A stretch of 64,000 nucleotides of DNA from a virus, in IMG/VR virus record IMGVR_UViG_3300045988_079613; one strand, written 5' to 3'. The first letter of the stretch is position 1. The number at the start of each line of letters is the position of its first letter. The position numbers and the translations under genes were made by a program. Positions 1,373 to 62,524 of this stretch are shown here, piece after piece. The notes under the pieces are model-generated. The model had not been told where the DNA came from and made no database searches. It saw nothing but the letters and a program-made list of their open reading frames with translations.

Positions 1373-1423
1373 TGATACTATTTTATTCAATACTTATTTA
1401 TAAACTTACTAAATTCTTACAAT

Positions 1424-28600: not shown

Positions 28601-29846
28601 CATTAAGCTTATAATCTGATAAGTTTAATGGACACATACAATCATGTTTTTTATCTATAGATGATAATACCTACTTTAAAGTACTATCTGTAGGAGTAAC
28701 AGATATACTAGATCCTGAATCAGCTGCCTATAATATTAACTTGTTACTTCCAGTAAATCTATACGACCTAGCATCATACTCTTCTCCATTTATCATTGGT
28801 TTCCAAGTAGTTTCTCTGACATCTGCAGCAAACAATATATTATCTTTCTTTTCTAGAGTAGCTACAGTGAAATCACTACCGATGTTAGCGTTAAATTCTT
28901 CTATAGTTACAGTATTCAACGTTTTATTACCTAAATCGGTATATGTTAAAGAATTACCGGAAGGTAAATCTATTTCGTCAATAACATCTATATTAGCTAT
29001 TTCGGTATTATCCACGTATTGTATTCTTACTATTCTACACTTGTCAAATAATCCAGAAACTACATTAGATAAATCAATTACAATATTAGCACTTTTGCCA
29101 GTATTGACATCTTTATTTACTCCTTGATATTCTGCAGAATCGGTAGTAGTATTACTAGATGTTAAGTGCATAGTGTTGCTAGCAGGAGCATATCCAGTAC
29201 TAGAACCTCTTTCATTATATAACTGATAAGTGTACTATACTTGTCCAGATAATAATGACCCATTAGTTCCAAGACTAACTATTTTAGGAGCAACTAGCAA
29301 TGTGCTTGGTATTATGTCCAACGAATCCGGATTCTTTATATTACCTTCTTCATCTAATGCTGGATTAGCACCTTCAGAGTTTTGTACGTATCTATCGCTC
29401 ATTATATTTAGTGATCTAATACTACTCTCTCCATCTGTAAAATACATTTTAATAATAGAATCAGATTCATAGTTAGCAACTATTTTAACTCTGCTAAATC
29501 TGTTATAATTAAGTCTTCCTTTTAATACTAGTGTGTGCTGTATTAATCCTTCTTCGTAACCCTCTACTCTATATATTCTAGTTATACCATATGGATCTGC
29601 AGTGAGTATGATACCATATTGATTAATTATGGCTGTAGCTAATACTACCTCGTCACTATCCATAAAATCACCACCTTGTATTAATCTAGTGCTTTGTATA
29701 TTCTAAAGTACTCCACTAGTACCATCTTTATTAGTAAGGATACGTACATTTTCTGCATACCTGTATTGTGATTCTGGTATAGCAGTAATATCAATATCCA
29801 AATTCATCCCTTCGATGAAACTATTCGTCTAGAAAGTATTACTCAT
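25674..29846 (-). CDS. Large tail structural protein, 1390 aa
   Basis: Track ORFs 26376..26594, 26775..27290, 28446..28637, 28728..29171 and 29235..29663 are co-framed. About 24 in-frame TAG. ATG at 29844-29846, TAA at 25674-25676. Confidence 0.6.
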
Positions 29847-30561
29847 AACATTTCCTTTCTGTATATTTCCATTTATACCCACCAGCTGTTTTATGAATTT
29901 TTTTCAAACTAAGAACAGATTGTATAGCAGTTTTAGCGATTCCTGTACATTTACTAGCACAACGTATAGATTTATAAGTATTCACTAAAACGTCGTCTCT
30001 AGTAAACTGAGACACAGGTTTACAATTTGCATATACTTCTTTTCTAGTCCAACTTCCGATATTCTAAGTTTTATTGTAACTCCACTAAAAACCTTTGTAT
30101 GATTTTTTATTCTTTCTGTGCTCACAACAACCTTTAATGTTGTCAACATAACCGTTTATTGATTTTGCTGCAATTAATAAATTATCATAACTACATATGT
30201 AATTTCCATTCATATCATAACAGTGTACCTATTTTCCACTAACTTTATTTATATTATAATTTCCACACTGTTCAATATACTTATTCTCTAAAAATTTAAT
30301 AGTGCTACGATTGTCTTCACATTCTTCTAGTATTATAAATGAGAATTTATCTATACCGAATATATCTACAGCGTTCTATAAATTTATATTGTGACATTTT
30401 CCACAAGAAAGATTCTACAAATGAAAACCCAATCTATTTTTTATATTTGTTGAAGATCCAACGTACATGTTATTATCTATATCATTTCGTATAGCGTATA
30501 TTCCACAACAGAAGTTACGAATTGAATTTATATTTTTTCTGGTAAATTTATAACATTTCAT
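29839..30561 (-). CDS. GIY-YIG homing endonuclease (free-standing), 240 aa
   Basis: GIYAIRN..MYVGSSTNIKNRLGFH N-terminal GIY-YIG motif, then two NUMOD1/IENR-like helix-turn-helix repeats. 5 in-frame TAG. Sits between two intact genes, with a TAATATG junction upstream and an 8-nt overlap downstream. Confidence 0.7.
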
Positions 30562-32699: not shown

Positions 32700-32731
32700 T
32701 TAAAATAAAAAAGGCTAGTATTAACTAGCCT
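32700..32731 (-). terminator. Rho-independent terminator
   Basis: Hairpin AGGCTAGT-loop-ACTAGCCT (32712-32731), followed on the minus strand by TTTTTTATTTT. The upstream gene's TAA lies in the loop. Confidence 0.7.
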
Positions 32732-33287
32732 CATTCATTGCTTTTTGCATATTCTATGGTAACATCTATTTCATCTAAGGTGGAACCATATTTCCTGCTT
32801 GTTTTATCAAATTCTTAAGTTCACCTACCTGATCTTGTAGTTCCTTTATTCTAGGATCTTCTTTATCAGGTTCTTTGTCATTATAATCTAACTACTTTAA
32901 TATTGATTCACATTTTGCCATTTCTTCGTCATACTTTGCCATTGCTTCTTTTTTAGCTTTACACTCATCGTAGTTAGCTTTAACCATATTAATTATTTGT
33001 TGTTTATCAGTTGCTACTGTTAAACCTATTGAACCATCTGTTACTATTGACTTGTTATCTTCTACAGATAACTTCTTTGATTCTCCATCACAGCTGATTA
33101 CTATGTCTACTAACTTCTTTCTAGTCTAGTTAGGCATAGGAAACTACTATGGTGGTAATGGTTCATCATATACTTTGGACACATTGGTAACCATTCCTTT
33201 ATAGTATGTAGTACTCTTCTTAAAAGTACCAACTACTTCAAGTACATGGATAGGTTCTCCAATGTTTAATTGTGAAAATGTAATCAT
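32721..33287 (-). CDS. Hypothetical protein, 188 aa
   Basis: Absent from the track because of 7 in-frame TAG. ATG at 33285-33287, TAA at 32721-32723. Confidence 0.5.
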
Positions 33288-33330: not shown

Positions 33331-33774
33331 TTAAGCTGCAGGAGCTGCAGTTGGTGTTACAATGTGGTTGACTACTTGGAATATTCCATTACACTTATTA
33401 TAGTATACGAAATATTTATTTCCAACTGTAACCTCTTGATTAACCATCTGTTCTCCAGAACCGTTTATTAACTATTTTCCACCAGCAGAAATGTTACTTG
33501 AAGTATTAGCATTAGAACTAGTATGAGTAGGATCTATTAAGATAGGAGCTTCTGCAGGAGTACCAGCAGCTGGAGCATGCTGTACATTCAAAAGTAATAT
33601 ACCTTCATTTGGTAATTGCCTCCATTGATATGGACACAAACCGTAAGTAACCTGGTTGGCTTCAGTATCTGTAGTCACGTAAATTGTACGTGCTACAGGT
33701 ATACCGGCTCTATCTAATCTCTATACATTATTTCTACGGGGAAATCCGTAACCGAAATTATAGAAAGGATACAT
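33331..33774 (-). CDS. Hypothetical protein, 147 aa
   Basis: Extends track ORF 33472..33678 through 2 TAG. The ATG at 33772-33774 is preceded by AAGGAGGT with 5-nt spacing. I saw no comparable Shine-Dalgarno sequence at the few other gene starts I checked. Confidence 0.55.
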
Positions 33775-33790
33775 AATTACCTCCTTTCTA

Positions 33791-34639
33791 TTAGCAACCA
33801 CATCCATCGTTGTATCCGAATGCTCCATACGCGCCATAGCAGCAGTTAGGATTCGGAACTACGTATGCAGGAGTAGGACACGGAGTCTTTAATTGAGAAA
33901 CAATATTAGCTGTCTGAGCTTGAGTAAGGGCTGCTGCTTCTAGAGCTGCTTTTTCACTACGCAATGTATCAATCTTGCTTTGCATTTCACGCATTTCAAG
34001 CTGACAGAATTTATCGTTGATTATTTGAGTTTGAGCGTCTATTTTAGCACCCAAAATATTAAATTGAGTATTAGCGTTGCTAGTCAGAGTATTCGTCTGG
34101 TTTACTATAGCTAACTGACTTTCATAACCCTGAGTAGTTATAGCATTACGAATATCGCAGCAGCAAGAAGCCAACTGAGATGCAAGGCTTGCATTACCGC
34201 TCTGGATAGCGTTGATTACTTGTGCACCTGTCAATTTAGTATCACAAGCGATCTGGCTAACACTAGTATTAATAGTGTTCAGTGCATTCTGTACTGCATT
34301 AATATCACAATTCAAAGTATTAGACAAAGTAGCGATAGCTTCTTTGTTACCATTGATTGCTTGCATTAGCAGATTAGTGTTGGCATCAGTATTTAATTGA
34401 GAAGCAAGCTGTGAAGCTTCACCGCTTCTGTTACCGAAGCCATTACCACCCCAACCGCCCCAAACAAAGAACAGTAAGATGATCCAGATCCACCAACAAC
34501 CGTTGCCACCGAAACCTCCATTGTTATTCATCATAGCCATGAGAGCTGCAGGGTCCATACTTTTATTACCATTCTGCATTAATGCAGCTAGACCAGCGTC
34601 AAAACCACGGTCTTGAACAATAATTTTATCTTCTAACAT
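33791..34639 (-). CDS. Membrane-anchored Gln/Asn-rich protein with a Cys-rich C-terminus, TAG-free
   Basis: 282 aa. Hydrophobic WWIWIILLFFVW segment, a long Q/N/A-rich helical region, and a C-terminal NPNCCYGAYGAFGYNDGCGC. Every Gln is CAA or CAG. Visibly GC-richer than its neighbours. Confidence 0.7.
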   Translation of the reverse strand: MLEDKIIVQDRGFDAGLAALMQNGNKSMDPAALMAMMNNNGGFGGNGCWWIWIILLFFVWGGWGGNGFGNRSGEASQLASQLNTDANTNLLMQAINGNKEAIATLSNTLNCDINAVQNALNTINTSVSQIACDTKLTGAQVINAIQSGNASLASQLASCCCDIRNAITTQGYESQLAIVNQTNTLTSNANTQFNILGAKIDAQTQIINDKFCQLEMREMQSKIDTLRSEKAALEAAALTQAQTANIVSQLKTPCPTPAYVVPNPNCCYGAYGAFGYNDGCGC

Positions 34640-34671
34640 AATTGATTTTATTTAGGATTGATTTAATTTGA

Positions 34672-35274
34672 TTAATATCTAATGTAGCGCACAGAACGAC
34701 CACGTTTGAATTCTTCTTCCATAGGAAAGGATTTTTCTCTTTCTCTCTCCTTCTCAAAGTCTCTTTCATCGTATTCTCTGTCGTATTCTCTACGTCTACC
34801 ATATGAAGATCTACCCATTCTACGGTAGTTTCCATAACGTTCCTCTTCGTCATCATCTTCGTACTTGCTGTAATGTCTTTCATAAAGATCTTCTTCAGCG
34901 TTTCTAATCTTATCACACATGACATAAATATAGTAGAACCACATCTTACCTTCATCTATATCTTTGTCACAGATCCAAGCTTTAGCTAATTCTACGAAGA
35001 ACTTCGTATTGTTAGTGCCGGTAATGTTAACAATGACACGATAGTAATCAGAGTATACCATATTCAATGCAACGTACCAATCATATTTGTTTATCTTTTC
35101 ATCTAAACGAATACCATATTGATTAGCTAATGCTGTAGTTTCTTCTAATGACCAATGTTGACCTCTTGTTCCGTCTTCATTTTCCATTTTATTTACAGCT
35201 TTACGAGCATGTTCTTCATTGAAATGAGGACCGTGTTCAGCTTCATAAGCTTTTGTACGGATTATTCTATGCAT
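34672..35274 (-). CDS. Hypothetical protein with an Arg/Glu/Asp/Tyr-rich tail, TAG-free
   Basis: 200 aa, uninterrupted, TAA stop. C-terminal RREYDREYDERDFEKEREREK low-complexity tail. Confidence 0.65.
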   Translation of the reverse strand: MHRIIRTKAYEAEHGPHFNEEHARKAVNKMENEDGTRGQHWSLEETTALANQYGIRLDEKINKYDWYVALNMVYSDYYRVIVNITGTNNTKFFVELAKAWICDKDIDEGKMWFYYIYVMCDKIRNAEEDLYERHYSKYEDDDEEERYGNYRRMGRSSYGRRREYDREYDERDFEKEREREKSFPMEEEFKRGRSVRYIRY

Positions 35275-35309: not shown

Positions 35310-35948
35310 TTATTTGATTTCTATTATTCTGGTATCAGTTACTTTGATAAGTTTATTGGAATTATCTATAGTAAATTTGCGAATTTTATCTTTTTTAAAG
35401 TCAAAGTGAAAGAACCTGGACAGCCACGATTTGTACTAATTACGATACACTTTTTTTTCTTCTATGAACAATGTCTAAGCATTCTTCAAATCTAATGTGA
35501 CTGATAAGATTGAATCTTTTCTACTTACTATGATTGTCGTTAATTTATTGAGTTTTAACTTCTTACTAAAATCTGATTCTTTTGTTTGGATTACTGTTTT
35601 GATTGAATCCTTTACTTCTGTATTGATTACTTGAGCTTGTACCAGGTTCTTATCTTTAACTTTTAATTTCTTTTTGGTTTCATTAAGCTATTCAATTATA
35701 CTGTCTTTACTACATTTTAACTAATCTATAGTAAGCTATAATGTTCTATTAGCCTAATCTTTCTTGTCAAATAGAGATTCATAGTAACTAGTATTATTAA
35801 CTAGCCTAGCTATCTCTGCATCCTTTTTTTTCAGTTGGTTGTACATAAAAAAAGCACTTACCGTTAGAATACATATGAAACTTATGGTAAGTGCTTTGAA
35901 ATTTCCTTTCAACCAATTAACTACTGTGAGTATTGCTGTTATTATCAT
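35310..35948 (-). CDS. N-terminal transmembrane plus coiled-coil protein (i-spanin-like), 212 aa
   Basis: Extends track ORF 35754..35948 through 6 TAG to TAA 35310-35312. TM segment ALTISFICILTVSAFFMY, then a K/E/L-rich helical region. Overlaps the holin 3' end by 32 nt. Confidence 0.5.
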
Positions 35949-36563: not shown

Positions 36564-37571
36564 TTATTCTTTAATATATTCTAATAGCTCTTTATATTTA
36601 GACATTTTATTTAATAAGTTACGTCCATTACAGTATTTAATCCAACCTATATAGCTACATATTTTTTGCTTATACGTATCTTTATCTAGGTTCTATTTTT
36701 TATTTAACTTGTTTATCTTTTTGCAGAATCTCTTTTTTATACGCTTTCTTAATAACGTATGAGTATGAAATACTCTATATCCTACAAAATCTATACCTCT
36801 CGAATCTACCTTAAATATCTACCAATTATCTTTAAAGTTTAACTTTAATTTATTATTAAGATAATCCTGTATGTTATAGAATAAATCTCGTAACTACTAC
36901 TTATCTCCACCTAATATTACAATATCATCTGCATATCTAAAGTAGTATCTAACTTTCTTTTGTTCTTTAATCCAGTGATCTAAATAAGTAAGATATAAAT
37001 TAGCAAAGAACTAGGATAAGTAATTACCAATAGGTACTCCCTAAGCTGATTCTATTATTTCATCTAACAGACTTAATAGTCTTTTGTCTTTTATTTTTTT
37101 CCTTATTATTGTTTTTAATATATCATGATCTATAGAAGAATAGAACTTTCTGATATCTAACTTTAAACAGTATTGCGTATTTATTTCATCCTTTAAAGCA
37201 AATTTAACATCTTTCAAAGCTTTGTGTATACCGCGCTTTCTAATGCAACTATAAGTTCCTTTTATAAATGCAGATACCCATATAGGCTCCATTATATTCA
37301 TAATTGCGTGATGTACAATTCTATCAGGATAGTATGGTAGCTTAAATATTTCTCTTTCTTTTGGTTCATATATTTTGAAAACATAATATTCGGAAGTTTC
37401 GTATTCCCCATTTATTAGTTTTCTTTGTAGATCTAGAAGTAACTTGTCTTTGTTCTTATCAAATAACATTACTTCAGGTCTATGTGATTTCTATCTTCTA
37501 GCTTTTTTATCAGCCTCATATAAGTTATCTAAACTTACTATTTTATCAAATAAATTATTGTATCTTTTCAT
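36564..37571 (-). CDS. Diversity-generating retroelement reverse transcriptase, 335 aa
   Basis: Track ORF 37041..37469 extended through 7 TAG (37491, 37041, 37011, 36897, 36894, 36819, 36693). Motifs PYYPDRIVHHA, GVPIGNYLS[TAG]FFANLYL, YADD (36924-35) and GIDFVGY. ATG at 37569-37571, TAA at 36564-36566. Confidence 0.85.
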
Positions 37572-37700
37572 CTGAAATCCTATTTCGAGTTTTCACAAAG
37601 TTACTAACACGAAGATTTTAATTAGTCATTTTTTACCTAGTGGTAAAGTCTCCTCTAACAGTTTTTTCATCTTATTATTCAGATGTGTTTTGTTAAGGTT

Positions 37701-37796
37701 TCAGTGTACTGACATTGGCATTAGCATTGCTAAGTGTATTGTTAGAATTCAAATTGAGCAAACTGGAATTCGTACTATTACTAGTGTTACTGCTTA
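37701..37796 (-). repeat. DGR template repeat (TR)
   Basis: 96 nt, aligned gap-free to 37845-37940 with 71 identities. 23 of the 25 mismatches are at TR positions that are A on the coding (minus) strand. The TR frame is rich in AAC and AAT codons. Confidence 0.85.
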
Positions 37797-37827
37797 ATGA
37801 CAGAGGACAACTTTATCTATATTTAAA

Positions 37828-39069
37828 TTACGGTATATAGATCAACCGAGTACCGACATAGGCACTAGCATTGCCAAGCGTATCGCGAGAACCCAAACCG
37901 AGCCAACCGGAATACGCACTATAACTAGCGCCACCGCCTACAATTAAGGTTCTATTTGAAGTGCTATTATTGGTATAATTATAATCACACCAGTATGTAG
38001 TAGCACTTCCTCCATATGCCTCATCAATTGGTGGAAACAAATCAAATGATTCATTATAAATGAGTCTCTTCTTATAACCATCAGTAGTTACAGTACTACA
38101 TTGTAAGTTATAATCTGAAATGTTAGTCGAACCAAATTTACTTACATCGGTAGTAACATAAACGTCATTTTTCGTAGAAGTTGCATTATAATGTATAAGT
38201 GTGTCTATACAATTTTTCCATACGTGACCGAATGGATTCTCTATTCCTCTGTAAGTAGGAACACTGTAAGTCTTCTGAGTAACAACTCCCTCTGCATCAC
38301 TGCTATCAACAGTAACTGAAGTAATTCCTGTAGAATTACCGTGTTCATCAGTACTACCACAGGGTATGAAATTATATTTAGCTACTCCGTTCACTTGTAT
38401 ACTACCAGTAGTAACACCATCTCCTAGACCTCCCTGATGATAACCTTCTGCAGTTAATTCAGCATTAAATGCTTTTTGAGAATTAGTACAAGCATATTCT
38501 ACTAAATATAGTATAGTAAGTACCTTGTGTGCATTATAAGTATATATATTCCAATTAGTACTACCGGCCTTATTAGCCCTAGCTCTTTGTTGCATTGTGG
38601 TTCTTGCAATATTAACTGAAGGAGTAATATTATCACCTTTAATAGACTTATATACATCTTCAACATTAGATGCTTCGTATGCTGAAATATAGAACTTCTC
38701 TACATGCTCTACTCCAGGTATCATGGGATCTGCAGGATACAAATTTAGATATACGGTATTGTCATCCTTCATACACTTATACCAAAACTCAGGTATTTCT
38801 ACCATAGTATTTAAAGTCATATCTCTATCAGAACCATCTTCATATTTAGTTCTATCGTCTGCTTTAAGATATTTAACCACACCATCAGCAGTAAGTGTAC
38901 ATGATTTCATTTTAGATTGAATCGGTAATTCTTTATGCCAAGGCATATAACCAATTCTAGTCAAAGTAGTACTTTGAGGTTCTATAGGGAAACTAACCCC
39001 ATAATAATTAGTAAATACGTTAGCGTTTCCTAAACGGACAGCTACAATATTTTTATCTCCAAGTTCCAT
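37828..39069 (-). CDS. DGR target: receptor-binding tail fibre tip protein with a C-terminal variable (C-type-lectin-fold-like) region, TAG-free
   Basis: 413 aa, uninterrupted. The VR covers the last ~35 codons. The C-terminal pattern GGG..S.W....S......N...VG.RL matches Mtd/CLec-type DGR variable proteins. Confidence 0.8.
   Translation of the reverse strand: MELGDKNIVAVRLGNANVFTNYYGVSFPIEPQSTTLTRIGYMPWHKELPIQSKMKSCTLTADGVVKYLKADDRTKYEDGSDRDMTLNTMVEIPEFWYKCMKDDNTVYLNLYPADPMIPGVEHVEKFYISAYEASNVEDVYKSIKGDNITPSVNIARTTMQQRARANKAGSTNWNIYTYNAHKVLTILYLVEYACTNSQKAFNAELTAEGYHQGGLGDGVTTGSIQVNGVAKYNFIPCGSTDEHGNSTGITSVTVDSSDAEGVVTQKTYSVPTYRGIENPFGHVWKNCIDTLIHYNATSTKNDVYVTTDVSKFGSTNISDYNLQCSTVTTDGYKKRLIYNESFDLFPPIDEAYGGSATTYWCDYNYTNNSTSNRTLIVGGGASYSAYSGWLGLGSRDTLGNASAYVGTRLIYIP
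37845..37940 (-). repeat. DGR variable repeat (VR) at the 3' end of the target gene
   Basis: Cognate of the TR, offset +144. Encodes GGGASYSAYSGWLGLGSRDTLGNASAYVGTRL. Confidence 0.85.
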
Positions 39070-44894: not shown

Positions 44895-44968
44895 TTTTCT
44901 GTGCTTATTAACTATTTTTTAACTGTGTATAGTGCTGGCATTTCATCAAAGTTTCACTCTCATTTACA

Positions 44969-45025
44969 CTCTTGCGAGGAACAAGGTTACGCTTGTCTAT
45001 TTCCTCTTGAGGAACCTCTTGCAAG
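44969..45025 (-). promoter_or_regulatory. Repeat- and palindrome-rich element in a 190-nt intergenic spacer
   Basis: CTCTTGCGAGGAAC (44969-82), hairpin ACAAG-GTTACG-CTTGT (44982-97), CTCTTGAGGAAC (45004-15, inside the palindrome TTCCTCTTGAGGAA) and CTCTTGCAAG (45016-25). Function unknown. Confidence 0.3.
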
Positions 45026-45085
45026 TCAATTGTTGGGAATACAGTGTATTTCATATGCTTTACTATTGAATTACTATCAGACTAA

Positions 45086-46900
45086 TTATACTTGCTCCCA
45101 AGTAACACTCCCATCCTCGTTGAAGATAATTCTCTTACCTGCTATCTCAACTACTGTATGAGAAGATGAACCTATTATGATCTGATTACTATCGGATGCT
45201 TTAACATTGTACCCTATAACAATAGAATTTTCTATCACTGCCGGAGTGCTCTTAGAATGCAGTTTAGCTAAATGTCCTATACAGATATTATTCTTACCGT
45301 CGACATCATAATTGTTCATTGCATCCATTCCTATAGCAACATTTCCTTCACCTTCTATATACAATGCAGCATTAGCCCCGACAGCAACACATTTAGTGTT
45401 ATTACGCACACCAGCAGATGCCCCGACAGCAACACATTTTGATTTAGCAAAATGTGCAGAACCACCACTTAATGTTCTATGCCCTATAGCTACGTTATCG
45501 ACGAAATCATTGCTATTTGTCTGCCCTAACGCATTTGTCCCAATTGCGACATTGCGTTCTCCTTGCCCTCTAACCTCTCCCAATGCAGCCTTACCTATTG
45601 CTACATTATCCTCTCCTTTTGGTATATACCACGCCGCATCAGAACCTATTGCTATATTTCTATCTCCCTCAATTAGGCGCGTTAGGGGGAATGTTCCTAT
45701 ACCGATATTCCTTGCTCCATATTTTAAGGAGCTTAACGATCTCTGACCTATTGCAATGTTGCGGGATCCATTCTGGTTCTTTGCAAGGGCATCGGTTGCA
45801 CCTATTGCAATGTTCCACCAGCCTGTAATGTTATCTGTCATTGTGCCTCCTTCAACATTTTCGTAGTGCTTATTACTATCAGAATCAAGTTCTACCTCTA
45901 TTGATGCCTCATCCTCAGAAACAATTTTACGAAGTTCCACTCCATACACACTTCCATCATATGCTGATGATGCGGTAATTTTAAGACTACCACCGTCCGA
46001 TATCATACCAACATAGAATTTACCTAACGTTCCATTATAGATATCACATAATCCCCCCTCACCGATACTAACACAAACATCCTTTTCGTATGTGCCGACT
46101 TTAGAATAATTGAATATTGCTACATATTTTTCACCCTCAATAGTAGCATGATCAAAAATAAGAGTATCTGTATTGCCTATAGCATGCGTATAAACCCCTT
46201 CTGTGTATTGCCAGTTATCTCCATTGCCAACAATTGAACTGATAAGGTTATCGCCAAGATATAATTTTTTACTTACTTTTCTACGAATGCAAGTTTTAAT
46301 ATCTTCGGATTGAATATCTTCGTCAAGAGTCACAATCCCATCTGGTCCAACTCTGAGAAATTTCCCTGCGTTGTTTATTCCTTGCTGTTTATCAACCTTG
46401 CCATTTATTAATCCAGATTCTGATTTGTATTCAATATTGGTAGGTTCATAGCTTACTCCAGATGAATTAGCGCAATAGACATATAGGTAATTACAATCAG
46501 AAGGTAATACTATCTCAAATGGAAAGTAGTGAGTCTCAATGCTTGTATATCCGTCACAAGCATTAACAATTGAACCGGATACGAAATCGCAATCTTTTAC
46601 AGGCAACACGGAGGCTCCATGAGCCGTATCTATCGGTGTAATCATCAGATTTCTTCCCGCCACAACAGGGATAACCTTGTGCTTTGTCAATCCATAATTT
46701 CCATTAGTTCTGAAAACTAAATCACTACTTGTAATTAATCCACTCCGATAATCATACAAATTCAAGTCGATTGCTTGGGCTTCAATACCAGTAATTTTAT
46801 CTACCTTTGAAAATATTTCCTCAAAGTTCCCATCAATCGCAGCAGCTAAAGTACCCCATGATTTTTCAGAGTCTTTTGCTATATCAAATATCTTTTCCAT
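45086..46900 (-). CDS. Tail spike/fibre with YadA-head/Hep_Hag-like N-x-AIG repeats, TAG-free
   Basis: 604 aa, uninterrupted. At least ten repeats of the form (R/D)N(I/V)AIG..A. at 45300-45760. C-terminal IIFNEDGSVTWEQV. Visibly GC-richer than its neighbours. Confidence 0.75.
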   Translation of the reverse strand: MEKIFDIAKDSEKSWGTLAAAIDGNFEEIFSKVDKITGIEAQAIDLNLYDYRSGLITSSDLVFRTNGNYGLTKHKVIPVVAGRNLMITPIDTAHGASVLPVKDCDFVSGSIVNACDGYTSIETHYFPFEIVLPSDCNYLYVYCANSSGVSYEPTNIEYKSESGLINGKVDKQQGINNAGKFLRVGPDGIVTLDEDIQSEDIKTCIRRKVSKKLYLGDNLISSIVGNGDNWQYTEGVYTHAIGNTDTLIFDHATIEGEKYVAIFNYSKVGTYEKDVCVSIGEGGLCDIYNGTLGKFYVGMISDGGSLKITASSAYDGSVYGVELRKIVSEDEASIEVELDSDSNKHYENVEGGTMTDNITGWWNIAIGATDALAKNQNGSRNIAIGQRSLSSLKYGARNIGIGTFPLTRLIEGDRNIAIGSDAAWYIPKGEDNVAIGKAALGEVRGQGERNVAIGTNALGQTNSNDFVDNVAIGHRTLSGGSAHFAKSKCVAVGASAGVRNNTKCVAVGANAALYIEGEGNVAIGMDAMNNYDVDGKNNICIGHLAKLHSKSTPAVIENSIVIGYNVKASDSNQIIIGSSSHTVVEIAGKRIIFNEDGSVTWEQV

Positions 46901-47273
46901 AATTATTTTTAATTAGTTTCTAATTCTAAATTAATGTAGCATTCTTTATTAATACTGTGTAATTCACTTCAGGAGGTACTGGAGTTGATATCTATAGTTT
47001 CCATTCCCCCAACACCACAGCTCCTAAATCTGTATATAAATTTATTCTAATCCAAGAATCTTTGAACTCTGATAGATCTATCTTATTAGTATTAGAATAA
47101 TACCTAATAAGCTTACTATCTCCATTAGCAATTACCTTTACTTCTATTATTCCGGAATACTTGGCAGGTTCAATGGTAGCATCTTTCTATTCCACTAACT
47201 AACCATTCAGATTTGGAAATACGTAATAAGCCTGTGGATTAATAAATATAGGATTATATAAAATTGTTTTCAT
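46884..47273 (-). CDS. Hypothetical protein, 129 aa (110 aa if the first terminal TAG, 46926, is a stop)
   Basis: Absent from the track. 3 internal TAG plus TAG at 46926 and 46920. Read-through ends at TGA 46884-46886, 17 nt inside the next gene. Confidence 0.4.
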
Positions 47274-47294: not shown

Positions 47295-47752
47295 TTAATA
47301 GTAATAGTAATTTCTTCTCCGTTTTCTACTGCTTCTTGCATCTTAGCATATAATGCTTTAAATGTTACAGTACTTTCCGTTACTTTACCAACTACGTTAT
47401 TTTTTCCTACTAACAAGCATCCATCTGTATCCGCCTCTGTGTTACCTATATGAATTAAAATACCATTGAAACCAGGTACATCTAATAGTCTAGGCAATTT
47501 CCCATTACAGAATTTATACTGTTTATATTTATTAAATTTAGGAGACACAACATCTAAAGTAACTTTATACGTACCAATAGGTATCGCAGTCTTACCATAT
47601 ACTTTAATCTTCTATATGTCTTCTAGCGGTGTATCTTGTGTAAGTCCTCTATCTGTATCTTCAAGAACATTGCAGAATTTAACGCCATCTATATACATAT
47701 TACTTATAGTATATGTACTTCTTTTAGCTATTCTTTCTGATATTATATGCAT
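47291..47752 (-). CDS. DUF5675-like protein (possible cell-wall-acting enzyme, function uncertain), 153 aa
   Basis: Track ORFs 47612..47839 and 47291..47548 are co-framed and joined by a TAG at 47612. Likely ATG at 47750-47752. The pattern TAIP.GTY.V....SPKF......P.L..VPGF.GILIH.GN...DT.GCLLVG matches my recollection of DUF5675. Confidence 0.55.
47422..47445. repeat. 24-bp exact direct repeat, copy 2
   Basis: Identical 24-mer inside 47291..47752, encoding GNTEADTDG. Confidence 0.8.
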
Positions 47753-48006
47753 AACTTCAATAATAATATTATACCTACTTGGATTGCTTGACCAATAATA
47801 CCACCTATCATAGTAGCTATCCAGTCCAACCAATCCCATTTACCGCCGTGTTGTTTATCTTTAAACTCCATACCTGTAGCTAAACCAGCTACAAATAATA
47901 TAGTGAACAGAGCACCTGGTAGTATTGCGTACTTCAGGTGCTTCGTTCTATTACTTTCTTTTAACCATTTAATTTGCATATCTTGTAGTTCTAGGTTGAG
48001 CATCAT
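47743..48006 (-). CDS. Small two-TM membrane protein (VanZ-like/holin-like motif), TAG-free
   Basis: 87 aa. Hydrophobic segments ILPGALFTILFVAGLATG and IGGIIGQAIQVGIILLL, plus the motif DWLDWIATMIGG. Confidence 0.55.
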   Translation of the reverse strand: MMLNLELQDMQIKWLKESNRTKHLKYAILPGALFTILFVAGLATGMEFKDKQHGGKWDWLDWIATMIGGIIGQAIQVGIILLLKLCI

Positions 48007-48160
48007 ATACTATACTACCGAGTAAATCTGCAGCAAGATTCATTCCAAATTGTTTATCATCGTTATCAATTTCGTTTACTCTTACTATTACATATTGTAA
48101 CATAGTATATATTGCTTCTAACAATTCCCTATCACTGTATTCACTCAGCTTGTTGGTCAT
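47969..48160 (-). CDS. Hypothetical protein, 63 aa
   Basis: ATG-initiated ORF with a TAA stop. Overlaps both neighbours. Confidence 0.4.
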   Translation of the reverse strand: MTNKLSEYSDRELLEAIYTMLQYVIVRVNEIDNDDKQFGMNLAADLLGSIVYDAQPRTTRYAN

Positions 48161-48431
48161 TGTTTTCAGAATTTATAATTTCATCTAACATAGGTATTAC
48201 AGATTCTTGAACTATGGCTAAGAAGCCATTAGATACTACACCTTTTATAGAAGTTGCAGCATCTTTGTCAAGTTCTACTTCACCATTATCATAAATGTTC
48301 TTAGCTAGTTCTAATCCTTCTTTACTTATAGCAGATCTATAAAGAATTTTACCTAACTCTTTTGACATATCTATATTCTCTTCATTACCCTCAATATCTC
48401 TAATAACTATATTTTTAAAATCTATTTTCAT
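48141..48431 (-). CDS. Hypothetical acidic protein, 96 aa
   Basis: ATG-initiated ORF ending in TGA, which shows TGA is a stop in this genome. Confidence 0.5.
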   Translation of the reverse strand: MKIDFKNIVIRDIEGNEENIDMSKELGKILYRSAISKEGLELAKNIYDNGEVELDKDAATSIKGVVSNGFLAIVQESVIPMLDEIINSENNDQQAE

Positions 48432-54985: not shown

Positions 54986-55957
54986 TTAGGCAGCAATGAA
55001 GTTTTCGATACCTTTTGCTACAATAGAAGAAGCAAAACCAGTTGAATGCTTAACATACAGTTCAGTAGTAAGCGGAGTGGTTTTGATGTATTGATTATCA
55101 TTACTCAGATACTTATTATCGTTTTCTACAGTAATATAATCGTAAGTAGCATCTTGCTCTACCATTCTATCTTGTACTACTTCAGGATAAGCTCCAGTAA
55201 ATACATGACCTTGGTAGCCCATATAACGTACTTCAGCGTCACGTACTTGTTTCCAGTAACCTTTACCAGGATTACCAGGAGTTTTAACAATAGTAGCACC
55301 AGGGATAGCGTCAGGCTGATTACTCAAAATAGCACCAGGAATAGTAACATACAGACTAGCTTCCATATCTACTACAGAATATTCATTCAATGAATATACA
55401 CCGTTATTGTCATCTTTTTCCATTGCAGTTAAAGTGATAACTGCAGCAGATGCAGACGCATTAACTCTACGGTTAGCATGTTTGTTAATCTTTTTAACGA
55501 TAGCAGCAGCTAAGTCAGCAGCAGTAGTGTTAGCAGCAAATACTTCGTATGTGTGCGTAAACTGACCCGGAGCTTCATACATGTCTTTATATACTATTCT
55601 TAGTACATATCTATGACCTGCAATGATAGTAGCATTAGTAAGAGTAATAACGATCTTGTTCTGAGCTGGAGCTACATATTCTCCAATAACTGCACTTGGA
55701 TTGGAATTCTTCTGAATTTCATTACCAAATTTAATATTAGCCTTATCAGCTACCTTACCATCAGGCATAGTAACTTTTACTTTATTCTGAGCTACACCTA
55801 TATACAAAGAAGTAGCCTTAGCTGCATCAGTAGCAGTTTTGATAATAGCTCTATTCTGGTCAAACAGAGCAACATCACCCGCAGAAAGTGCATCAGCAGT
55901 AGTATAAGCTGACGGAAGATTTTTACCGATCAAAACGGTATTTACGTGTTGAATCAT
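54986..55957 (-). CDS. Probably abundant structural protein (auxiliary capsid, decoration or head-fibre candidate), TAG-free
   Basis: 323 aa, uninterrupted, Ala/Val/Thr-rich, GC-richer than its neighbours. Has its own ~100-nt leader and a strong terminator. The specific role is not recognisable from sequence alone. Confidence 0.6.
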   Translation of the reverse strand: MIQHVNTVLIGKNLPSAYTTADALSAGDVALFDQNRAIIKTATDAAKATSLYIGVAQNKVKVTMPDGKVADKANIKFGNEIQKNSNPSAVIGEYVAPAQNKIVITLTNATIIAGHRYVLRIVYKDMYEAPGQFTHTYEVFAANTTAADLAAAIVKKINKHANRRVNASASAAVITLTAMEKDDNNGVYSLNEYSVVDMEASLYVTIPGAILSNQPDAIPGATIVKTPGNPGKGYWKQVRDAEVRYMGYQGHVFTGAYPEVVQDRMVEQDATYDYITVENDNKYLSNDNQYIKTTPLTTELYVKHSTGFASSIVAKGIENFIAA

Positions 55958-56722: not shown

Positions 56723-57421
56723 TTATTCAGATAATTGGTTTAACTGTAATTTACTAGAGGTTCTTTGAGATTCAATATTTTCTAATGCTAACACTACAGC
56801 TCTATTTATTACTTCTGACATTACATCATCCGGTAAATCTAATTCACCGTCTAGATTAGTATAGTCAAATTGAGTAGGTTTCTTTATATAAGTAATATTT
56901 ATTGCATACTTATTATTAGATGGAGCGTATTCGGTTTGTTGCATCAATATTGGATCAACGTACAGTAACATTTTATTATCCTCTAATACTACCACAGGTA
57001 CCTCTACCCAAGGTATATTGTTATACGTCTGTTTGAATAACATTGCAGTATTATGATCAACAATCATGCAGTTAGCAAAATTATTACCATACTTTAGTGT
57101 TACTGCCCATATTGTTACTCTATTCCCATCATCATGCACATTATCTAATACAAATTCATTATATGCATTCTTCTACATTATTAGATTTTCATCTGTACGT
57201 ATGAGCTTATCTAATTCAGATATTCTCTATAATGATCCTTCAAAACCTAACTTTAGTATATTGTTACCACTTATTTTGTTGCTTATTACATCATCCTAAG
57301 CCTAGTTAAGAAATAAATCTATCTCCTAAGGTAGGAATGCAGGAGCTCCCCCAAAGGCAACTCCCTAAGCATTCTTATCTAGGATAACTTTAAACTAAAT
57401 ATGTGCAGTACGGTTATTCAT
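56723..57421 (-). CDS. Head/neck-associated hypothetical protein, 232 aa
   Basis: Track ORF 56723..57139 extended through 7 TAG to ATG 57419-57421, which overlaps the upstream TAA (TAATG). Confidence 0.55.
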
Positions 57422-58173: not shown

Positions 58174-58177
58174 AATA

Positions 58178-59191
58178 TTAAATATTAGATTGTTCAGTTA
58201 GTTGTTCTTTATATTTCCAGATATACTTAGCGTTATTCCACGCTCTTTTGTTATTGGGGTCTATAGGATTTTGTAATTGCCTTTGAATTCCTCTTCTATC
58301 ACAGTTGGATATTCTACTAGCTTCAGAGATAGAAACATACTCCGTTATCAAATTATTATTTTTATCATATTGACAAATAGATTTAGCTACCTTTAACCCA
58401 TTTTCTATAGCAATTTGTCTTTGCTTTTCTGTAACTTTTCTATTTTTTCTTGATTCTAAGTCTGCTTTTCTACAAACTTCAGAGATAGTTGGTTTCCAAT
58501 TAGGATCTTTAGCAAATAAACTAGAAGGGACAGTAGTTGGTACGTCAGGATAATTCTCTTTATACACCCATATATATGGGTTTACTTTAGATTCTGTAAT
58601 ATTCTTTCGCTTCAATGCATTCGACAAAGTAGTAGTATGTATTCCTGTTAGTCTAGAAGCCTCGTTTACTCCTGAAAATTCTTGAATAAAATTACCTTCT
58701 TTAGTATATTGTAATACTGCTTTTTTTCTAGTACTACCAATCTGGCCGGATTCCCAATAAGCTTTTCTTGCATCAGTTACTACTTTACCAGCTTCTGACA
58801 GCTTTAACCTAGTAGTTTCTGTTATTTCTCTTCCTAAAGCTTTCTGACGAATTTTATCTTTAGTTTCTTCAGTATGTTGTCTACCGAAAGTTCCATCACC
58901 CCCTTCAGTCATATTATAACCAAATTCGTCTTGTATAGAATTATATTTAGAAATATAATATTGTTCTTTTTCTGTGAGTTCTTCCCAATTGTTGCAGAAA
59001 TCCACGAGTTCTATTGAAAAGCTCTCTTTACCGTACTTTCGTATAGCGTTGTGTAATTTAAAAGGACAGCCGTGCTCGGCATTGTAGAGGTGTTCTTTCC
59101 ACCGAGCACTTACTCCTTTACTTGTAATTCCTATATATACTTTATTATTAATCTTGTTAGTTATTTTATAAACATCGTAAGAATGCATCAT
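58178..59191 (-). CDS. GIY-YIG homing endonuclease (I-TevI-like, free-standing), TAG-free
   Basis: YKITNKINNKVYIGITSKGVSARWKEH GIY-YIG motif, plus two NUMOD1/IENR-like repeats (NEASRLTGIHTTTLSNAL and SEASRISNCDRRGIQRQL). 337 aa. Lies immediately downstream of the capsid gene. Confidence 0.8.
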   Translation of the reverse strand: MMHSYDVYKITNKINNKVYIGITSKGVSARWKEHLYNAEHGCPFKLHNAIRKYGKESFSIELVDFCNNWEELTEKEQYYISKYNSIQDEFGYNMTEGGDGTFGRQHTEETKDKIRQKALGREITETTRLKLSEAGKVVTDARKAYWESGQIGSTRKKAVLQYTKEGNFIQEFSGVNEASRLTGIHTTTLSNALKRKNITESKVNPYIWVYKENYPDVPTTVPSSLFAKDPNWKPTISEVCRKADLESRKNRKVTEKQRQIAIENGLKVAKSICQYDKNNNLITEYVSISEASRISNCDRRGIQRQLQNPIDPNNKRAWNNAKYIWKYKEQLTEQSNI

Positions 59192-59272: not shown

Positions 59273-60742
59273 TCACTCAGCTTCCATGATCAGTTCCCCA
59301 CACGCACGTGGATCCCTTAACATTATTCCCATTTCTCCAAGGAAGAATACAGTATAACCATCCTTACCATTAGATCTCAGAGTATTCTTAGAGTTTGCAT
59401 AACCAGACGGAGCAACTGCACCACCAGTATACCAAGTAACAAACTCGCGATCTTTACGAACTACTTTTACGATGTTAGCTTCACCATCACGTCTACCAAG
59501 ATCTAAGAATGTCATACGATATGACTCTAGAGGTTTCAACGTAACAGGATGTAATTGACGATTATAAGTAACATCATCATACAACGGGAAGTACTTCAGA
59601 GTCAATTCAATACCATTAGTCATTTTGTAAGTCTTAAACTGACCACCAAAAGTAAGATTATCACCAGAACCTGTAACAAATACTGTGTCAATAAGATTCA
59701 TATTGACCATCTTTTCTTTCAAGATTCTATCAAATTCTCTCATACCCATCTCACCGGTCAATGCAACAAACTTACGTTCATTAGTACCAAGTACATTATA
59801 TGACAGATCAAATAAGAAGTCTTCTAATAAGGCTGCAGTAAGTCTAGTATAGTAACGTTTGTTAGACGGAGCAATCTGTTCCAACAAACCAGCACCCATA
59901 AATACAGGACGCCCGTTAGTACCTTTCAGATTACAAGTACCATCTTTGTTTACATTGTTCTTCATGTAAACCAACATTCTTTCACATCTCTTATACCACT
60001 CTCTCATGGCAACCCATTCTTGGTAGTCTGCCCACAGATAAGATTTCTTACCTGTCTTAGGATCCTGCAATGCAATAGCCATTACTGTAGAATAAGCTGA
60101 ACCAGTAATATCATAATTGATACGAATTGTAGTCAAATAATTACGCATCTTAAATGCAGTATTATAGTTCAGGATATCACCTTCTTCACTATATTCTTCT
60201 ACAGCAGAAGCTAGACGTGACACTTGGCAACCAGGTTTCAGGTATTCAGCAGGAATATAAGAAGTAGGTTGGCCGTCTGCAATATAACAGGTATAAACCC
60301 ATAGATTGCCATCTTGGTAAGGAGCACCTGCAACACGTACTTGGAAGTCTTTGTTATCAAATTCCAATACAGCAGTAGGTCCAAACCAATTATCTTCCAG
60401 CCACAACATGATTGGAGTATTACCCAAACCAGCTGTAGTCGTATCTGTGATGGCTGCGCCATTCCATTTAGCATCTCTAATTGTTACTGCTCTGTCAGCG
60501 TCAATCATTACATTCCACTCCCAACTAGGCTGATCAATGGTCATCACATTACCAAGACCACCAGTGAGCATATCCAAAGAAGTGTTGTAACCATTATCTT
60601 TAGTACCAAATACATAAGACAATACGGTAGCAACCTGATACGGATTCTATTGTGAAGCTGCTGAAATTTTAGCAGTATCAATCAGATCACTGAACCACTT
60701 GCCTTTGTACAAAACCAAATTGTTTAATATATTGTTATCCAT
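59273..60742 (-). CDS. Major capsid protein candidate (crAss-like, HK97-fold class), 489 aa
   Basis: Track ORF 59273..60622 extended through a single TAG (60647-49) to ATG 60740-60742. The call rests on size, position after the scaffold-like gene, very low TAG density and my recollection of crAss-like MCPs. Confidence 0.6.
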
Positions 60743-60747: not shown

Positions 60748-61323
60748 TTAGTTATTATTTTTAAATTTCCAAATAAAATTTTTTACTGTTTTATATCGTC
60801 CACTACATGCTCTAAGAATGTCTCTAGCATAAAACTATTTTAATCCTAAAGAGTATGCCGCTTCAGTAGCACTATCGTGTTCTCTTATGAATACTCCGTC
60901 AAGTGTAAATTGTAATACTGGAATACGTCTACTTAAAGTTTTCCTATATTTTCCAGTGCCATAATTAACATTATACTTAGCATCACACCATTCTAGATTA
61001 TCTACACAGTTATTTAATTTGTCTTCATCTTTATGATTAACCTAATCATAATTATTTGGATTATTTAAAAACATCTATGCAACCAATCTGTGTATTCTAT
61101 AACTTCTTTTTACTTTATCTTTATATAAGACTACAAAGTAATAACCTCCTCCTTCTATAGCTGGAACTAAAATTTTTTCTTTATACGTTACCTACCTACC
61201 ATTTGGAAATCTTCTAGAAGGTGAATGAAACACAGTATGCTATAGAGACTTTACTCTACCAAGACTACTAATCTAGTAATCAGGATATCCTGGAATATCT
61301 TTCCAGACTTCTTTCTCTTTCAT
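60748..61323 (-). CDS. HNH homing endonuclease (NUMOD4 + HNH_3 type), 191 aa
   Basis: Absent from the track because of 6 TAG. WKDIPGYPDY[TAG]ISSLGRVKS (NUMOD4) and HRLVA..FL.NP....VNHKDEDKLNNCVDNLEW (HNH). Its TAA is 5 nt before the capsid ATG. Confidence 0.7.
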
Positions 61324-61345: not shown

Positions 61346-62524
61346 TTAATCTACACGTAATTGTCGTGCAAAGGAACTCCATAAAGTAGTATCTTCATTA
61401 GAGATTTCCTGTTTTTTAGTCTTCCTACTTACTCCTGTTTTACTTAAACTGTTTTTGAATTTACTAATAGCATTATTAGAACCTTCACTTTTAGCAGCTT
61501 TTAACAATGTGTCTCCCTTCATAGTAAAGTAAGCAGACTCAAGTAAGTTCTTTACGCTCTTAGACCAATCTTTTTGAAATCTGGTCATACCGTCAGCGTC
61601 AGGTTTAAATATATACTCTAGTAATACCTTTTTATCTTTTTCAGGTATCTTAATACCGCGTATATTATCCATGCCTTTTATTTCGTTGACAACGTTCTAA
61701 AAGTATTCCTGTTGACGCTTCTGAGCTGCCTTAGCTTGGTTTTCTTGATCTTTCAATAGCTGTTGTTTCTTTTGTTCTCTTATCTCTTTCAAGGCTTCCA
61801 AGGCATCCTCAGCTTCATCCTCAAGTAAACCTGCATCCTCGTACTTAGTCAACTTTTTCTCTATTTGTTTGCTATTAAAACCTTTTTCCTTCAAGAATTC
61901 TTTCAATACAAGTTTTTGATTTGTTTCGTCTTCTTCAATACTAATTTCTTCAAGATCAAGTTCGCCATCAATTTCGAAATAGTCTCTAAGATTACCACCG
62001 TTCTTAACAAAATTATCCAGTGCCTCTACCTCTTCACTAGCGTATTGAGGTACTGAATTCTCTTCAATTACTGATTGAAAATAGTCAACAAGCTCCTCAG
62101 GGGTAGAAGGGATTTCCTCTTCTTCATCAAGATCCCAGCCCATTTTTTCTGCCATTACTCCAAAGAATGCACTTACTGCATTAGTGTCATCATCAGTTTC
62201 TTCAGTCTTTGTACTTCTTTCGTCTTCTCTAGTTGAATCATCATCTTCTTCAACTTCTTTATCCTTTCCGGTTTTCTTTTTAACAGGCGTGTCCTGCTCT
62301 TCATCCTCTTTAGCCGAATTATCATCTTTCTTATCCTTTTTAGGATTACGTAATCCTTCCAGTTCTTCGTCAGTTAACTCTTCTGTTACAGCATCTTCAT
62401 CTACCTTAGTATCATCTACCTCAGTATCTTCGCCAGGTTGCTTGATTTCTGTCTTAGTAAATACATTAGCTCCTGGCATGAAATCTTCAAATATTTCAAA
62501 ACCGTTTAATGTTTCTTTTTCCAT
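61346..62524 (-). CDS. Scaffolding-like acidic protein, 392 aa
   Basis: Track ORFs 61697..62524 and 61346..61672 are co-framed and joined by a TAG at 61697. Strongly acidic, helical, low-complexity N-terminal half. Lies upstream of the capsid gene. Confidence 0.55.

Follow-up and report, generated by a model that had tools for sequence, protein, structure and literature searches.

We analyzed a 64-kb stretch of viral DNA (IMG/VR virus record IMGVR_UViG_3300045988_079613; 64,000 nucleotides, hereafter the window) from a phage that reads TAG as glutamine, and asked why two adjacent late genes at 33791-35274 contain no in-frame TAG. An original prediction, made from the letters alone, had described this pair and several other late genes as TAG-free, GC-richer islands with a bimodal TAG density, and had offered two readings, selection against TAG in highly expressed genes and recent acquisition from standard-code donors. 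We found that TAG use is a conserved trait of each gene family. The pair lies among the following features (TAG/Gln, the fraction of Gln codons that are TAG).

32711..32732, minus strand: terminator-like hairpin and T-run after gene 32721-33287, the probable end of a unit running from the holin gene to 32721
33331..33837, minus strand: third gene, downstream of the pair, 168 aa, 2 TAG (pooled TAG/Gln 0.195)
33791..34639, minus strand: 282-aa gene of the pair (phrog_16490), 0 TAG in 21 Gln codons
34672..35274, minus strand: DUF7841 (PF25223) gene of the pair (E = 4.7e-43), TAG-free
35310..35948, minus strand: LysB-like/spanin-like gene immediately upstream of the pair (TAG/Gln 0.64)

The 282-aa protein has an N-terminal hydrophobic/transmembrane (TM) segment, a long Q/N/S/T-rich coiled coil and a Cys-rich C-terminus. 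The DUF7841 protein consists of a conserved domain of approximately 130 aa and an acidic/basic low-complexity tail, and carries a conserved C-terminal S-x-R-Y-[IV]-R-[YF] motif. The GC content of the two genes (0.41 and 0.357) is above that of their flanks (0.28-0.32). A single terminator-like hairpin, at 32732-32711, suggests co-transcription of the pair with two TAG-rich genes, the spanin-like one upstream and 32721-33287 downstream. NCBIfam and PADLOC scans of the pair cassette and its neighbors in the lysis region gave no usable matches, an AlphaFold2 model of the DUF7841 protein was poor (pLDDT 48, from an alignment of 35 sequences), and a search of the published literature found nothing on DUF7841 or on the pair. 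A "spike glycoprotein" label on the 282-aa gene was rejected, because it reflected only a weak coiled-coil similarity to coronavirus HR1 (E = 0.02).

Identity and genetic code of the phage

The window is AT-rich (GC approximately 0.29-0.38). Between 3851 and 63656 all genes are on the minus strand; the plus strand holds a short replication block at 141-3818. In collinear blocks the window was approximately 95% identical at the nucleotide (nt) level to the crAss-like phage cr56_1 (Crassvirales; Suoliviridae; Loutivirinae; Buchavirus); this identity, together with synteny to crAss001 in the region holding the major capsid protein (MCP) gene, places it in Crassvirales. When TAG was read through, the total length of open reading frames (ORFs; at least 100 aa, six frames) rose from 45 to 80.5 kb and a 13.5-kb ORF for the virion RNA polymerase (vRNAP) appeared, and TAG terminated none of the window genes. 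The ortholog codons facing window TAGs were TAG (27%), CAA (17%), CAG (6%; 24% for CAA and CAG together) and GAA (6.5%), a profile that matched the one at window CAA/CAG sites. Metaproteomics of a related phage demonstrated that TAG encodes Gln (Peters et al. 2022, PMC9523058). A tRNA scan of the 64-kb window found no tRNAs; cr56_1 has a tRNA(CTA) at 92120-92199, adjoining the terminase gene and beyond the part that the window covers. The window belongs to a crAss-like phage of the genus Buchavirus (Suoliviridae) in which TAG is recoded to Gln (code 15).

The replication genes at 524-3267 on the plus strand contained no TAG. TAGs were seen at the ends of the plus-strand block (one in 141-521 and three in 3294-3818), so the rule of a TAG-free early block is not absolute. 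The host is presumably a Bacteroides species, judging from the links to the spike-donor phage group described below.

Distribution of TAG among the late genes

The late genes with few or no TAGs, in addition to the pair, are as follows.

37828..39069, minus strand: Mtd-like tail gene, target of a diversity-generating retroelement (DGR); 0 TAG in the window, family mildly depleted (0.215)
45086-46900, minus strand: spike gene, 604 aa, 0 TAG, within an imported block
47743..48431, minus strand: three small genes, 3-5 Gln codons each, 0 TAG, zeros compatible with chance
54986..55957, minus strand: auxiliary capsid protein, homolog of crAss001 gp36, 0 TAG in 12 Gln codons
57421..58173, minus strand: gene at the crAss001 gp33 position, 0 TAG, 2 Gln codons, family moderately depleted (0.144)
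58178..59191, minus strand: free-standing GIY-YIG/NUMOD homing endonuclease gene (HEG), TAG-free, capsid-adjacent
59273..60742, minus strand: MCP, single TAG at codon 32 (60647-60649)
61346..62524, minus strand: scaffold-like acidic protein at the crAss001 gp31 position, 1 TAG in 392 codons

All the genes that the original prediction had listed as TAG-free were found where it had placed them, on the minus strand and with no in-frame TAG, and the two that it had called nearly TAG-free, for the MCP and the scaffold-like protein, held one TAG in 489 and 392 codons, respectively. Its background rate of approximately one TAG per 50-70 codons agreed with our count for the late strand (281 TAGs in 19,660 codons, approximately 1 per 70). 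Its figure of approximately 26 Gln codons for the 282-aa gene was too high, the actual number being 21 (10 CAA and 11 CAG).

TAG was over-dispersed among the late-strand genes, both when counted per codon (chi2 = 109, df 41, p = 4e-8) and when conditioned on the Gln codons; the claimed unevenness thus stood up when the TAG/Gln ratio was computed, since this ratio was non-uniform (X2 = 108.9, p = 2.7e-8). Ten genes had no TAG, compared with 3.9 expected (P = 7.5e-4). Only two passed Bonferroni correction within the window, the 282-aa gene (binomial p = 2e-4) and the spike gene, for which the absence of TAG from 604 codons was, as had been claimed, unlikely by chance (Poisson p = 1.8e-4). Within the window, the zeros of 34672-35274, 57421-58173 and the three small genes were unremarkable (2-5 Gln codons, p = 0.13-0.45).

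The impression that the islands are GC-richer held in part. The median GC content was 0.357 in TAG-free genes and 0.319 in the others (Mann-Whitney U test, p = 0.019). It was raised in the 282-aa gene (0.41), the DUF7841 gene (0.357), the spike gene (0.386), 54986-55957 (0.372) and 37828-39069 (0.353), and was not raised in 57421-58173 (0.309), the GIY-YIG gene at 58178 (0.324) or the small genes. The GC content at third codon positions (GC3) did not differ significantly overall between TAG-free and other late genes. The proposed bimodal density was not supported: the values of TAG/Gln pooled per family made up a continuum between 0 and 0.64, apart from a gap at 0.26-0.37, and the Bayesian information criterion favored one broad component. 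The unevenness of TAG is an over-dispersed gradient with at least three mixed causes.

TAG use across orthologous families

We collected approximately 160 related IMG/VR loci around the 282-aa gene and around 54986-55957, assigned their TAG-read-through ORFs to window genes by BLASTP, and counted codons over distinct orthologs. Pooled TAG/Gln was lowest in the DUF7841 family (0.000; 56 distinct sequences, 97 Gln codons) and the 54986 family (0.014), followed by the scaffold-like family (0.057), the family of the 282-aa gene (0.059; 70 distinct sequences) and the MCP family (0.074). The values in the same set were 0.08 for the GIY-YIG endonuclease and 0.144 for the 57421 family. A middle group had 0.17-0.26, and most late genes had 0.37-0.64; the spanin-like, tail-tube and reverse transcriptase (RT) families lay at 0.44-0.64, the LysB-like/spanin-like family having the highest value of all (0.64). 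Along minimum spanning trees of the orthologs, TAG accounted for 58-86% of the Gln-codon changes in TAG-rich families and for 13-26% in the capsid-class families and the 282-aa gene family. In the DUF7841 family, TAG was involved in none of 16 inferred changes.

A simple equilibrium calculation based on the T/C and A/G third-position biases of the genes themselves gave an expected TAG/Gln of 0.47, as against 0.37 in the TAG-rich genes. The bulk of the late genes is therefore near mutational equilibrium, and the TAG-poor genes are the deviants. The MCP, 54986, scaffold-like, 282-aa and DUF7841 families had a normal share of G-ending Gln codons, but CAG (40-63%) replaced TAG in them, and the same five families had the top C-ending fractions. 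Over all families, TAG/Gln was only weakly correlated with GC3 (rho = -0.07) or C-ending bias (rho = -0.26), because the TAG-poor genes are of two kinds, which were separated by a leave-one-out codon score.

Capsid-type codon usage

This score, capsid-likeness, is a leave-one-out log-likelihood of synonymous usage with Gln excluded (bits/codon). It was positive for the MCP (0.26), 54986-55957 (0.21), the 282-aa gene (0.21), 57421-58173 (0.06) and DUF7841 (0.05), and below zero in every other family. Capsid-likeness was inversely correlated with TAG/Gln (Spearman rho = -0.45, p = 0.008), and the MCP and the auxiliary capsid protein, which had the top scores, were among the families with the lowest TAG/Gln, in line with a bias linked to expression. 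The GIY-YIG endonuclease at 58178 (-0.21) and the imported spike (-0.22) scored like the bulk of the genes, indicating that the score does not merely detect GC-rich foreign DNA.

The protein encoded at 54986-55957 was colinear with crAss001 gp36 by BLASTP (22% identity over 246 aa, E = 3e-6); both are encoded by the fourth gene after the MCP gene (MCP+4), and their lengths are 323 and 333 aa, respectively. In crAss001, gp36 is an auxiliary capsid protein present in nine copies per asymmetric unit, equimolar with the MCP (PMC10172136). A homolog search with 54986-55957 returned only sequences of 97-99% identity, unusable for a deep alignment, and sequence searches of PDB chains with the products of 54986, 33791, 34672 and 57421 gave no significant match.

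The infant-gut phage of Peters et al. is a relative of the window phage: its peptides were found in the window MCP (11 of 12 tested) and, for its "unidentified structural protein _29", in the 54986 product (6 of 11 tested). In its proteome, the top sequence coverage was that of the MCP homolog (42%) and the auxiliary-protein homolog (59%), and for both proteins the code-11 and code-15 gene models coincide, i.e., they are TAG-free (Peters et al. 2022, PMC9523058). Lower-copy virion proteins (tail, stabilization and vRNAP) had coverages of 1-23% and TAG/Gln of 0.22-0.53.

The single TAG of the window MCP gene is at a recurrent position. Among 70 distinct MCP orthologs, 58 of the 63 TAGs were at residue 32, which lies in the conserved, proteomically confirmed N-terminus and is encoded by CAA/CAG in relatives at 88-89% identity. 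This TAG could reflect shared ancestry or a cheap "gate" codon. A GC-rich hairpin (GGAACCTTGCGGCAAGTTC) was noted in 59192-59272, between the MCP stop codon, which it directly follows, and the TAG-free endonuclease gene.

Ancestry and loss of the gene pair

The original prediction had counted the pair among recent acquisitions. The comparison with other crAss-like genomes contradicted this assignment, since the pair is syntenic in another subfamily and has left deletion scars in cr56_1, cr60_1 and cr113_1. The scar loci are as follows.

Window, 33331-35274, minus strand: intact pair and downstream gene
cr56_1, 57742-58178: deletion-scar locus
L273, 2501-3390: deletion-scar locus
L274, 2501-3199: deletion-scar locus

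Phage cr56_1 lacks the pair but has kept 105 bp at 100% identity, comprising the DUF7841 start and its first six codons (MHRIIR), followed by a stop codon; it has also kept a decayed C-terminal remnant of gene 33331-33837. In cr60_1, DUF7841 residues 1 to approximately 151 are joined out of frame to residue ~44 of a 32721-type gene, and in cr113_1 residues 1-57 are fused in frame to residue ~15 of such a gene. These different breakpoints point to loss of the pair by three independent deletions within Buchavirus. A metagenomic protein (P0043) resembles a fourth DUF7841 fusion.

Phage cr1_1, a member of Boorivirinae, keeps the order holin, LysB-like, DUF7841, TM/coiled-coil and two small genes, and uses the standard code at this locus (no TAG in 16 genes). 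Its homolog of the 282-aa gene has 15 CAG and 5 CAA codons, a C-ending fraction of 0.45, a GC content of 0.40 and a capsid-likeness of +0.25. For the window versus cr1_1, synonymous sites were essentially saturated (same-codon fractions of 0.56 and 0.52, where 0.47 and 0.53, respectively, were expected), which indicates that the bias of the 282-aa gene has been actively maintained and is older than the recoding. The pair is thus ancestral and not a recent acquisition.

More distant carriers of DUF7841, cr118_1 and cr111_1, were sought as a TGA-recoded test of the four invariant Trp residues; both use the standard code. The cr111_1 (Steigviridae) protein, encoded at L276 6758-7351, is DUF7841-like (28% identity, E = 3e-4), has its charged low-complexity region at the N-terminus, and is encoded immediately upstream of the scaffold-like and MCP genes, a position that hints at a link to head assembly.

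Import of the spike block

The loci compared for the spike gene were as follows.

Window, 44929..46943, minus strand: imported block, 97.3-98.9% nt identity to contigs L166-L172 and L180
Window, 44899-47030: spike slot
cr56_1, 67840-69243: spike slot
L167, 3889-7815: corresponding locus of the donor type

The donor type was represented by approximately 10 IMG/VR contigs (20-59 kb, GC 0.39-0.41) with flanks unrelated to the window. These contigs were fully coding under the standard code (ORF coverage approximately 1.07, compared with 0.74 for a true crAss relative), and TAG is a stop codon in them. The gene after the spike is intact in donor-type contig L167 (89 aa) and is cut to 48 aa at the window junction (44908-45054), which indicates transfer from the donor to the crAss-like phage. 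The model of an ORF at 44908-45114, with one apparent TAG, was discarded as over-extended; the remnant ORF actually starts at 45054. To judge from these alignments, the spike block is a recent import from a standard-code phage of approximately 40% GC, and so recent an origin explains why the spike is TAG-free. The reading of recent acquisition from standard-code donors thus held for the spike, whereas it failed for the pair and for the GIY-YIG gene.

In the corresponding slot of cr56_1, gp57 holds a 95%-identical piece of the neighboring tail gene of the donor type; the only TAGs of gp57, at codons 25 and 29, are both in its native N-terminal anchor. The slot is an exchange hot-spot for receptor-binding modules with a group of standard-code phages of approximately 40% GC and 40-60 kb; the Bacteroides thetaiotaomicron phages DAC16 and DAC23 are more weakly similar to this group (80%). 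Many other contigs share the first ~33 residues of the spike at 91-96% identity, suggesting a common adaptor. Several segments are foreign with respect to cr56_1 yet TAG-rich (the HNH gene at 60748-61323, the gene at 62769-63656 and the vRNAP block), and foreignness is therefore no predictor of a TAG-free state.

Homing endonucleases

The window has two HEGs with TAG in addition to the TAG-free gene at 58178-59191.

29839..30561, minus strand: second GIY-YIG homing endonuclease, 5 TAG, a counter-example to the rule that mobile genes are TAG-free
60748..61323, minus strand: HNH homing endonuclease, 6 TAG, between the scaffold-like and MCP genes, absent from cr56_1

The relatives of HEG 58178 at 72-84% identity (23 distinct sequences) contained 213 CAA, 41 CAG and no TAG codons (0 of 254 Gln codons), and all of them were on recoded contigs of approximately 100 kb. 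In the earlier set, every homolog of at least 42% identity likewise had no TAG. The proposal that this gene is a recent import was not borne out by these relatives. Because its codon usage resembles that of the bulk of the genes, its TAG avoidance needs another cause than the one that acts on the capsid genes, and strict avoidance without an expression-type bias makes suppressor-free translation the best account; the translation of HEG 58178 probably takes place at times or sites without available suppressor. A scan for the Bacteroidota -33/-7 pattern and for sigma-70 promoters showed neither enrichment nor any site upstream of a TAG-free gene; in the search for promoters and terminators, only the terminator-like hairpins were informative.

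The three free-standing HEGs (two GIY-YIG and one HNH) are in the structural region, and their presence or absence differs from cr56_1, in which gp44 is a GIY-YIG gene at a site that is empty in the window.

Explanations for the uneven use of TAG

We consider it fairly probable that TAG is an ordinary but costly Gln codon held down by selection in proportion to protein output, and that the pair belongs to the selected class. At each TAG, the amber-suppressor tRNA of the phage would have to beat the release factor of the host, and we infer a cost of decoding from this competition. In most late genes, TAG would have drifted near the level expected from AT-biased mutation (CAG to TAG). The MCP, the equimolar auxiliary capsid protein and the scaffold-like protein, being abundant, would have been kept almost TAG-free, with CAG used instead; selection in highly expressed genes, the other reading originally offered, thus gained support for the capsid, scaffold and 54986-55957 genes. 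The pair would fall into the same selected class, as an old resident of a lysis-proximal operon in Suoliviridae. Two further causes would be added to this gradient, the import of the spike and the suppressor-independent translation of HEG 58178. The capsid-grade codon bias of the 282-aa gene and the weaker one of DUF7841 suggest that late in infection the two proteins are produced abundantly, and our best guess is that they are abundant, dispensable accessory proteins associated with the envelope or with assembly.

Several points weigh against this explanation. The DUF7841 family has only three Gln columns, so its lack of TAG rests on few sites; its capsid-likeness is only weakly positive (0.05), and that of its cr1_1 homolog is -0.09. 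The scaffold-like family is TAG-poor, yet its capsid-likeness is -0.11. Three losses within one genus are unexpected for a gene under strong expression selection. Homologs of the pair were undetected in the virion-enriched proteome of the related phage, whose carriage of them is uncertain. The pooled ortholog counts overstate the sample size because the sequences are phylogenetically related, and the spanning trees, by which this relatedness was handled, are a crude correction.

A less probable, though still serious, explanation is that the TAG-free genes are translated before or without the suppressor and that the TAG-rich cistrons wait for the code switch, so that TAG content would reflect temporal order. 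In its favor, strict zeros were found in the HEG family (0 of 254) and in DUF7841 (none of 97 Gln codons, none of 16 changes); the MCP, auxiliary capsid, scaffold-like and 282-aa families, however, are depleted and not TAG-free (1-7%), and most MCPs need the suppressor for the TAG at codon 32. The lack of an expression-type codon bias in the HEG fits this explanation as well, whereas the capsid-type bias over all amino acids, which is also present in the standard-code relative, fits expression level and not timing, and early synthesis is not obviously needed for capsid proteins. The gene directly upstream of the pair is the most TAG-rich one (spanin-like, 0.64), and the two appear to lie in one transcription unit; separate promoters were not found with the -33/-7 pattern or the sigma-70 scan. 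There is a precedent in recoded prophages, whose integrases avoid the recoded stop codon (Borges et al., 10.1101/2021.08.26.457843). We hold it somewhat more doubtful that codon choice splits a single late transcript, with DUF7841 (and its membrane/coiled-coil partner) and the HEG independent of the code while the spanin-like gene waits for the suppressor. If this were true, the pair would be a "first responder", acting, e.g., in lysis delay or envelope conditioning, and the HEG a weapon that works in cells or co-infections where TAG still terminates.

It is unlikely that the TAG-poor genes represent the neutral baseline and that TAG-rich genes are positively selected, TAG serving as a brake on lysis and late functions. 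The TAG/Gln of the spanin-like, tail-tube and RT families (0.44-0.64), which fits the published enrichment in spanin and tail-tube genes, and the higher total G-ending share of Gln codons in TAG-rich families (rho = 0.63) would be consistent with such a brake. Mutational equilibrium (0.47), however, already reaches or exceeds the bulk value (0.37), so positive selection is unneeded for most genes, and only the top few families (0.59-0.64) are above it. The TAG-poor genes deviate far more and still have CAG at 40-63%, a state that requires purifying selection.

That the pair and the GIY-YIG gene were recently acquired from standard-code donors and are too young to have gained TAG is very improbable and already largely refuted for both. 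The pair is missing from cr56_1, the closest sequenced relative, which nevertheless carries the 105-bp remnant and the decayed downstream gene, and other truncations are present in cr60_1 and cr113_1. The GC content of the pair exceeds that of its flanks (0.41 and 0.357 vs. 0.28-0.32), yet cr1_1, from another subfamily, has the block in synteny and at saturated synonymous divergence, and 56-70 diverged orthologs in recoded genomes remain TAG-low. The mechanism has operated on the spike in the same genome, but the imported spike lacks capsid-type usage (-0.22), which the 282-aa gene has; the relatives of the HEG (72-84% identity) are all in recoded genomes, with no TAG in 254 Gln codons. Finally, chance combined with low Gln content, the least credible explanation, would suffice for five low-Gln genes (34672-35274 and 57421-58173 with 2 Gln codons each, and the three small genes with 3-5 each; individually non-significant at p = 0.13-0.45, with 47969-48160 being TAG-rich in relatives), but is refuted as a global account by the dispersion (p ~3e-8), the 10 zero-TAG genes against 3.9 expected (P = 7.5e-4) and the TAG-poor state of the same families over dozens of diverged orthologs.

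Other features of the late region

The window contains a complete DGR at 36564-39069, with the RT gene at 36564-37571, the template repeat (TR) at 37706-37796 in an intergenic region, and the variable repeat (VR) at 37850-37940 in the 3' end of the Mtd-like gene. TR and VR differ at 22 positions, 21 of which are TR adenines. A hairpin with a T-run, like the one after the MCP gene, follows the RT gene upstream of the holin gene.

The first of the three small genes (47743-48006) encodes an 87-aa protein with two hydrophobic segments and adjoins an L,D-carboxypeptidase gene; its cr56_1 counterpart is labeled "putative lipoprotein". The protein is holin-like in appearance, its family is TAG-poor in relatives (0.02), and a homolog (68% nt identity) is located next to the endolysin gene of the spike-donor phage type. 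The 47969-48160 family is TAG-rich in relatives (TAG/Gln 0.38).

Comparison with known systems

Code-15 recoding of the late or structural block has been described in crAss-like phages (Yutin et al. 2021, PMC7886860; Borges et al., 10.1101/2021.08.26.457843; Peters et al. 2022, PMC9523058). The window agrees with these descriptions in that TAGs are mainly on the structural/lysis strand, none is present in the replication genes at 524-3267, TAG aligns with Gln, and a tRNA(CTA) is present in the near-identical cr56_1. The published picture is one of two blocks, an early standard-compatible one and a late recoded one, whereas the late block of the window is strongly heterogeneous gene by gene, in a manner conserved in orthologs. 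Recoding is usually told as two blocks with a timing switch; TAG in this late block would instead act as a codon of graded cost, near mutational equilibrium in most genes and purged from the proteins produced most. Expression level and the cost of suppressor decoding could then be judged by proxy from sequence alone, through TAG content, and this tempers the view of TAG content as mainly regulatory. For annotation, a TAG-free gene in a recoded block is not necessarily foreign or differently coded.

Borges et al. (10.1101/2021.08.26.457843) reported that TAG is enriched in spanin, amidase and tail-tube genes of crAss-like phages and that integrases of Garnet and Topaz prophages avoid the recoded stop codon. 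The window shows the same family bias, the spanin-like gene at 35310-35948 being the most TAG-rich and the tail-tubular gene also high, and the strict avoidance in the HEG and DUF7841 is like that of the integrases. In crAss-like phages those authors tested enrichment only, and avoidance only for prophage integrases; avoidance in the capsid, auxiliary capsid, scaffold-like, 33791/DUF7841 and HEG families is unreported by them, and we found no systematic published description of family-wide TAG avoidance in capsid-class genes. They described a TGA-rich intron endonuclease in Agate phages, whereas the window has one TAG-free HEG family and two TAG-rich ones. The TAG-free HEG and the codon-optimized, repeatedly deleted 33791/DUF7841 pair are concrete experimental targets.

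The spike import resembles the known exchange of receptor-binding modules, both in being a sharp-edged 2-kb block with 97-99% identity to an unrelated phage group and in that the cr56_1 slot holds a different imported segment. It differs in that it crosses a code boundary, from a standard-code donor to a TAG-recoded recipient, and we found no published account of such a code-crossing spike import. Genes can thus move from standard-code to recoded phages without repair, and only in this direction, because the donor gene has no in-frame TAG. This asymmetry should shape the evolution of host range in crAss-like phages.

Classical translational selection acts on the synonymous codons of highly expressed genes and is related to the cost of nonsense and processivity errors. 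As in that system, the abundant proteins of the window phage shun what would be the least efficiently decoded codon, and a C-ending, CAG-rich bias over all amino acids persists despite saturated synonymous divergence. The difference is that the disfavored codon is a reassigned stop codon, over which suppressor and release factor would compete, so that the penalty would be premature termination and not slow decoding; TAG avoidance is also much stronger than the T-versus-C bias in the same genes. The present finding extends a known phenomenon and does not represent a new kind of system.

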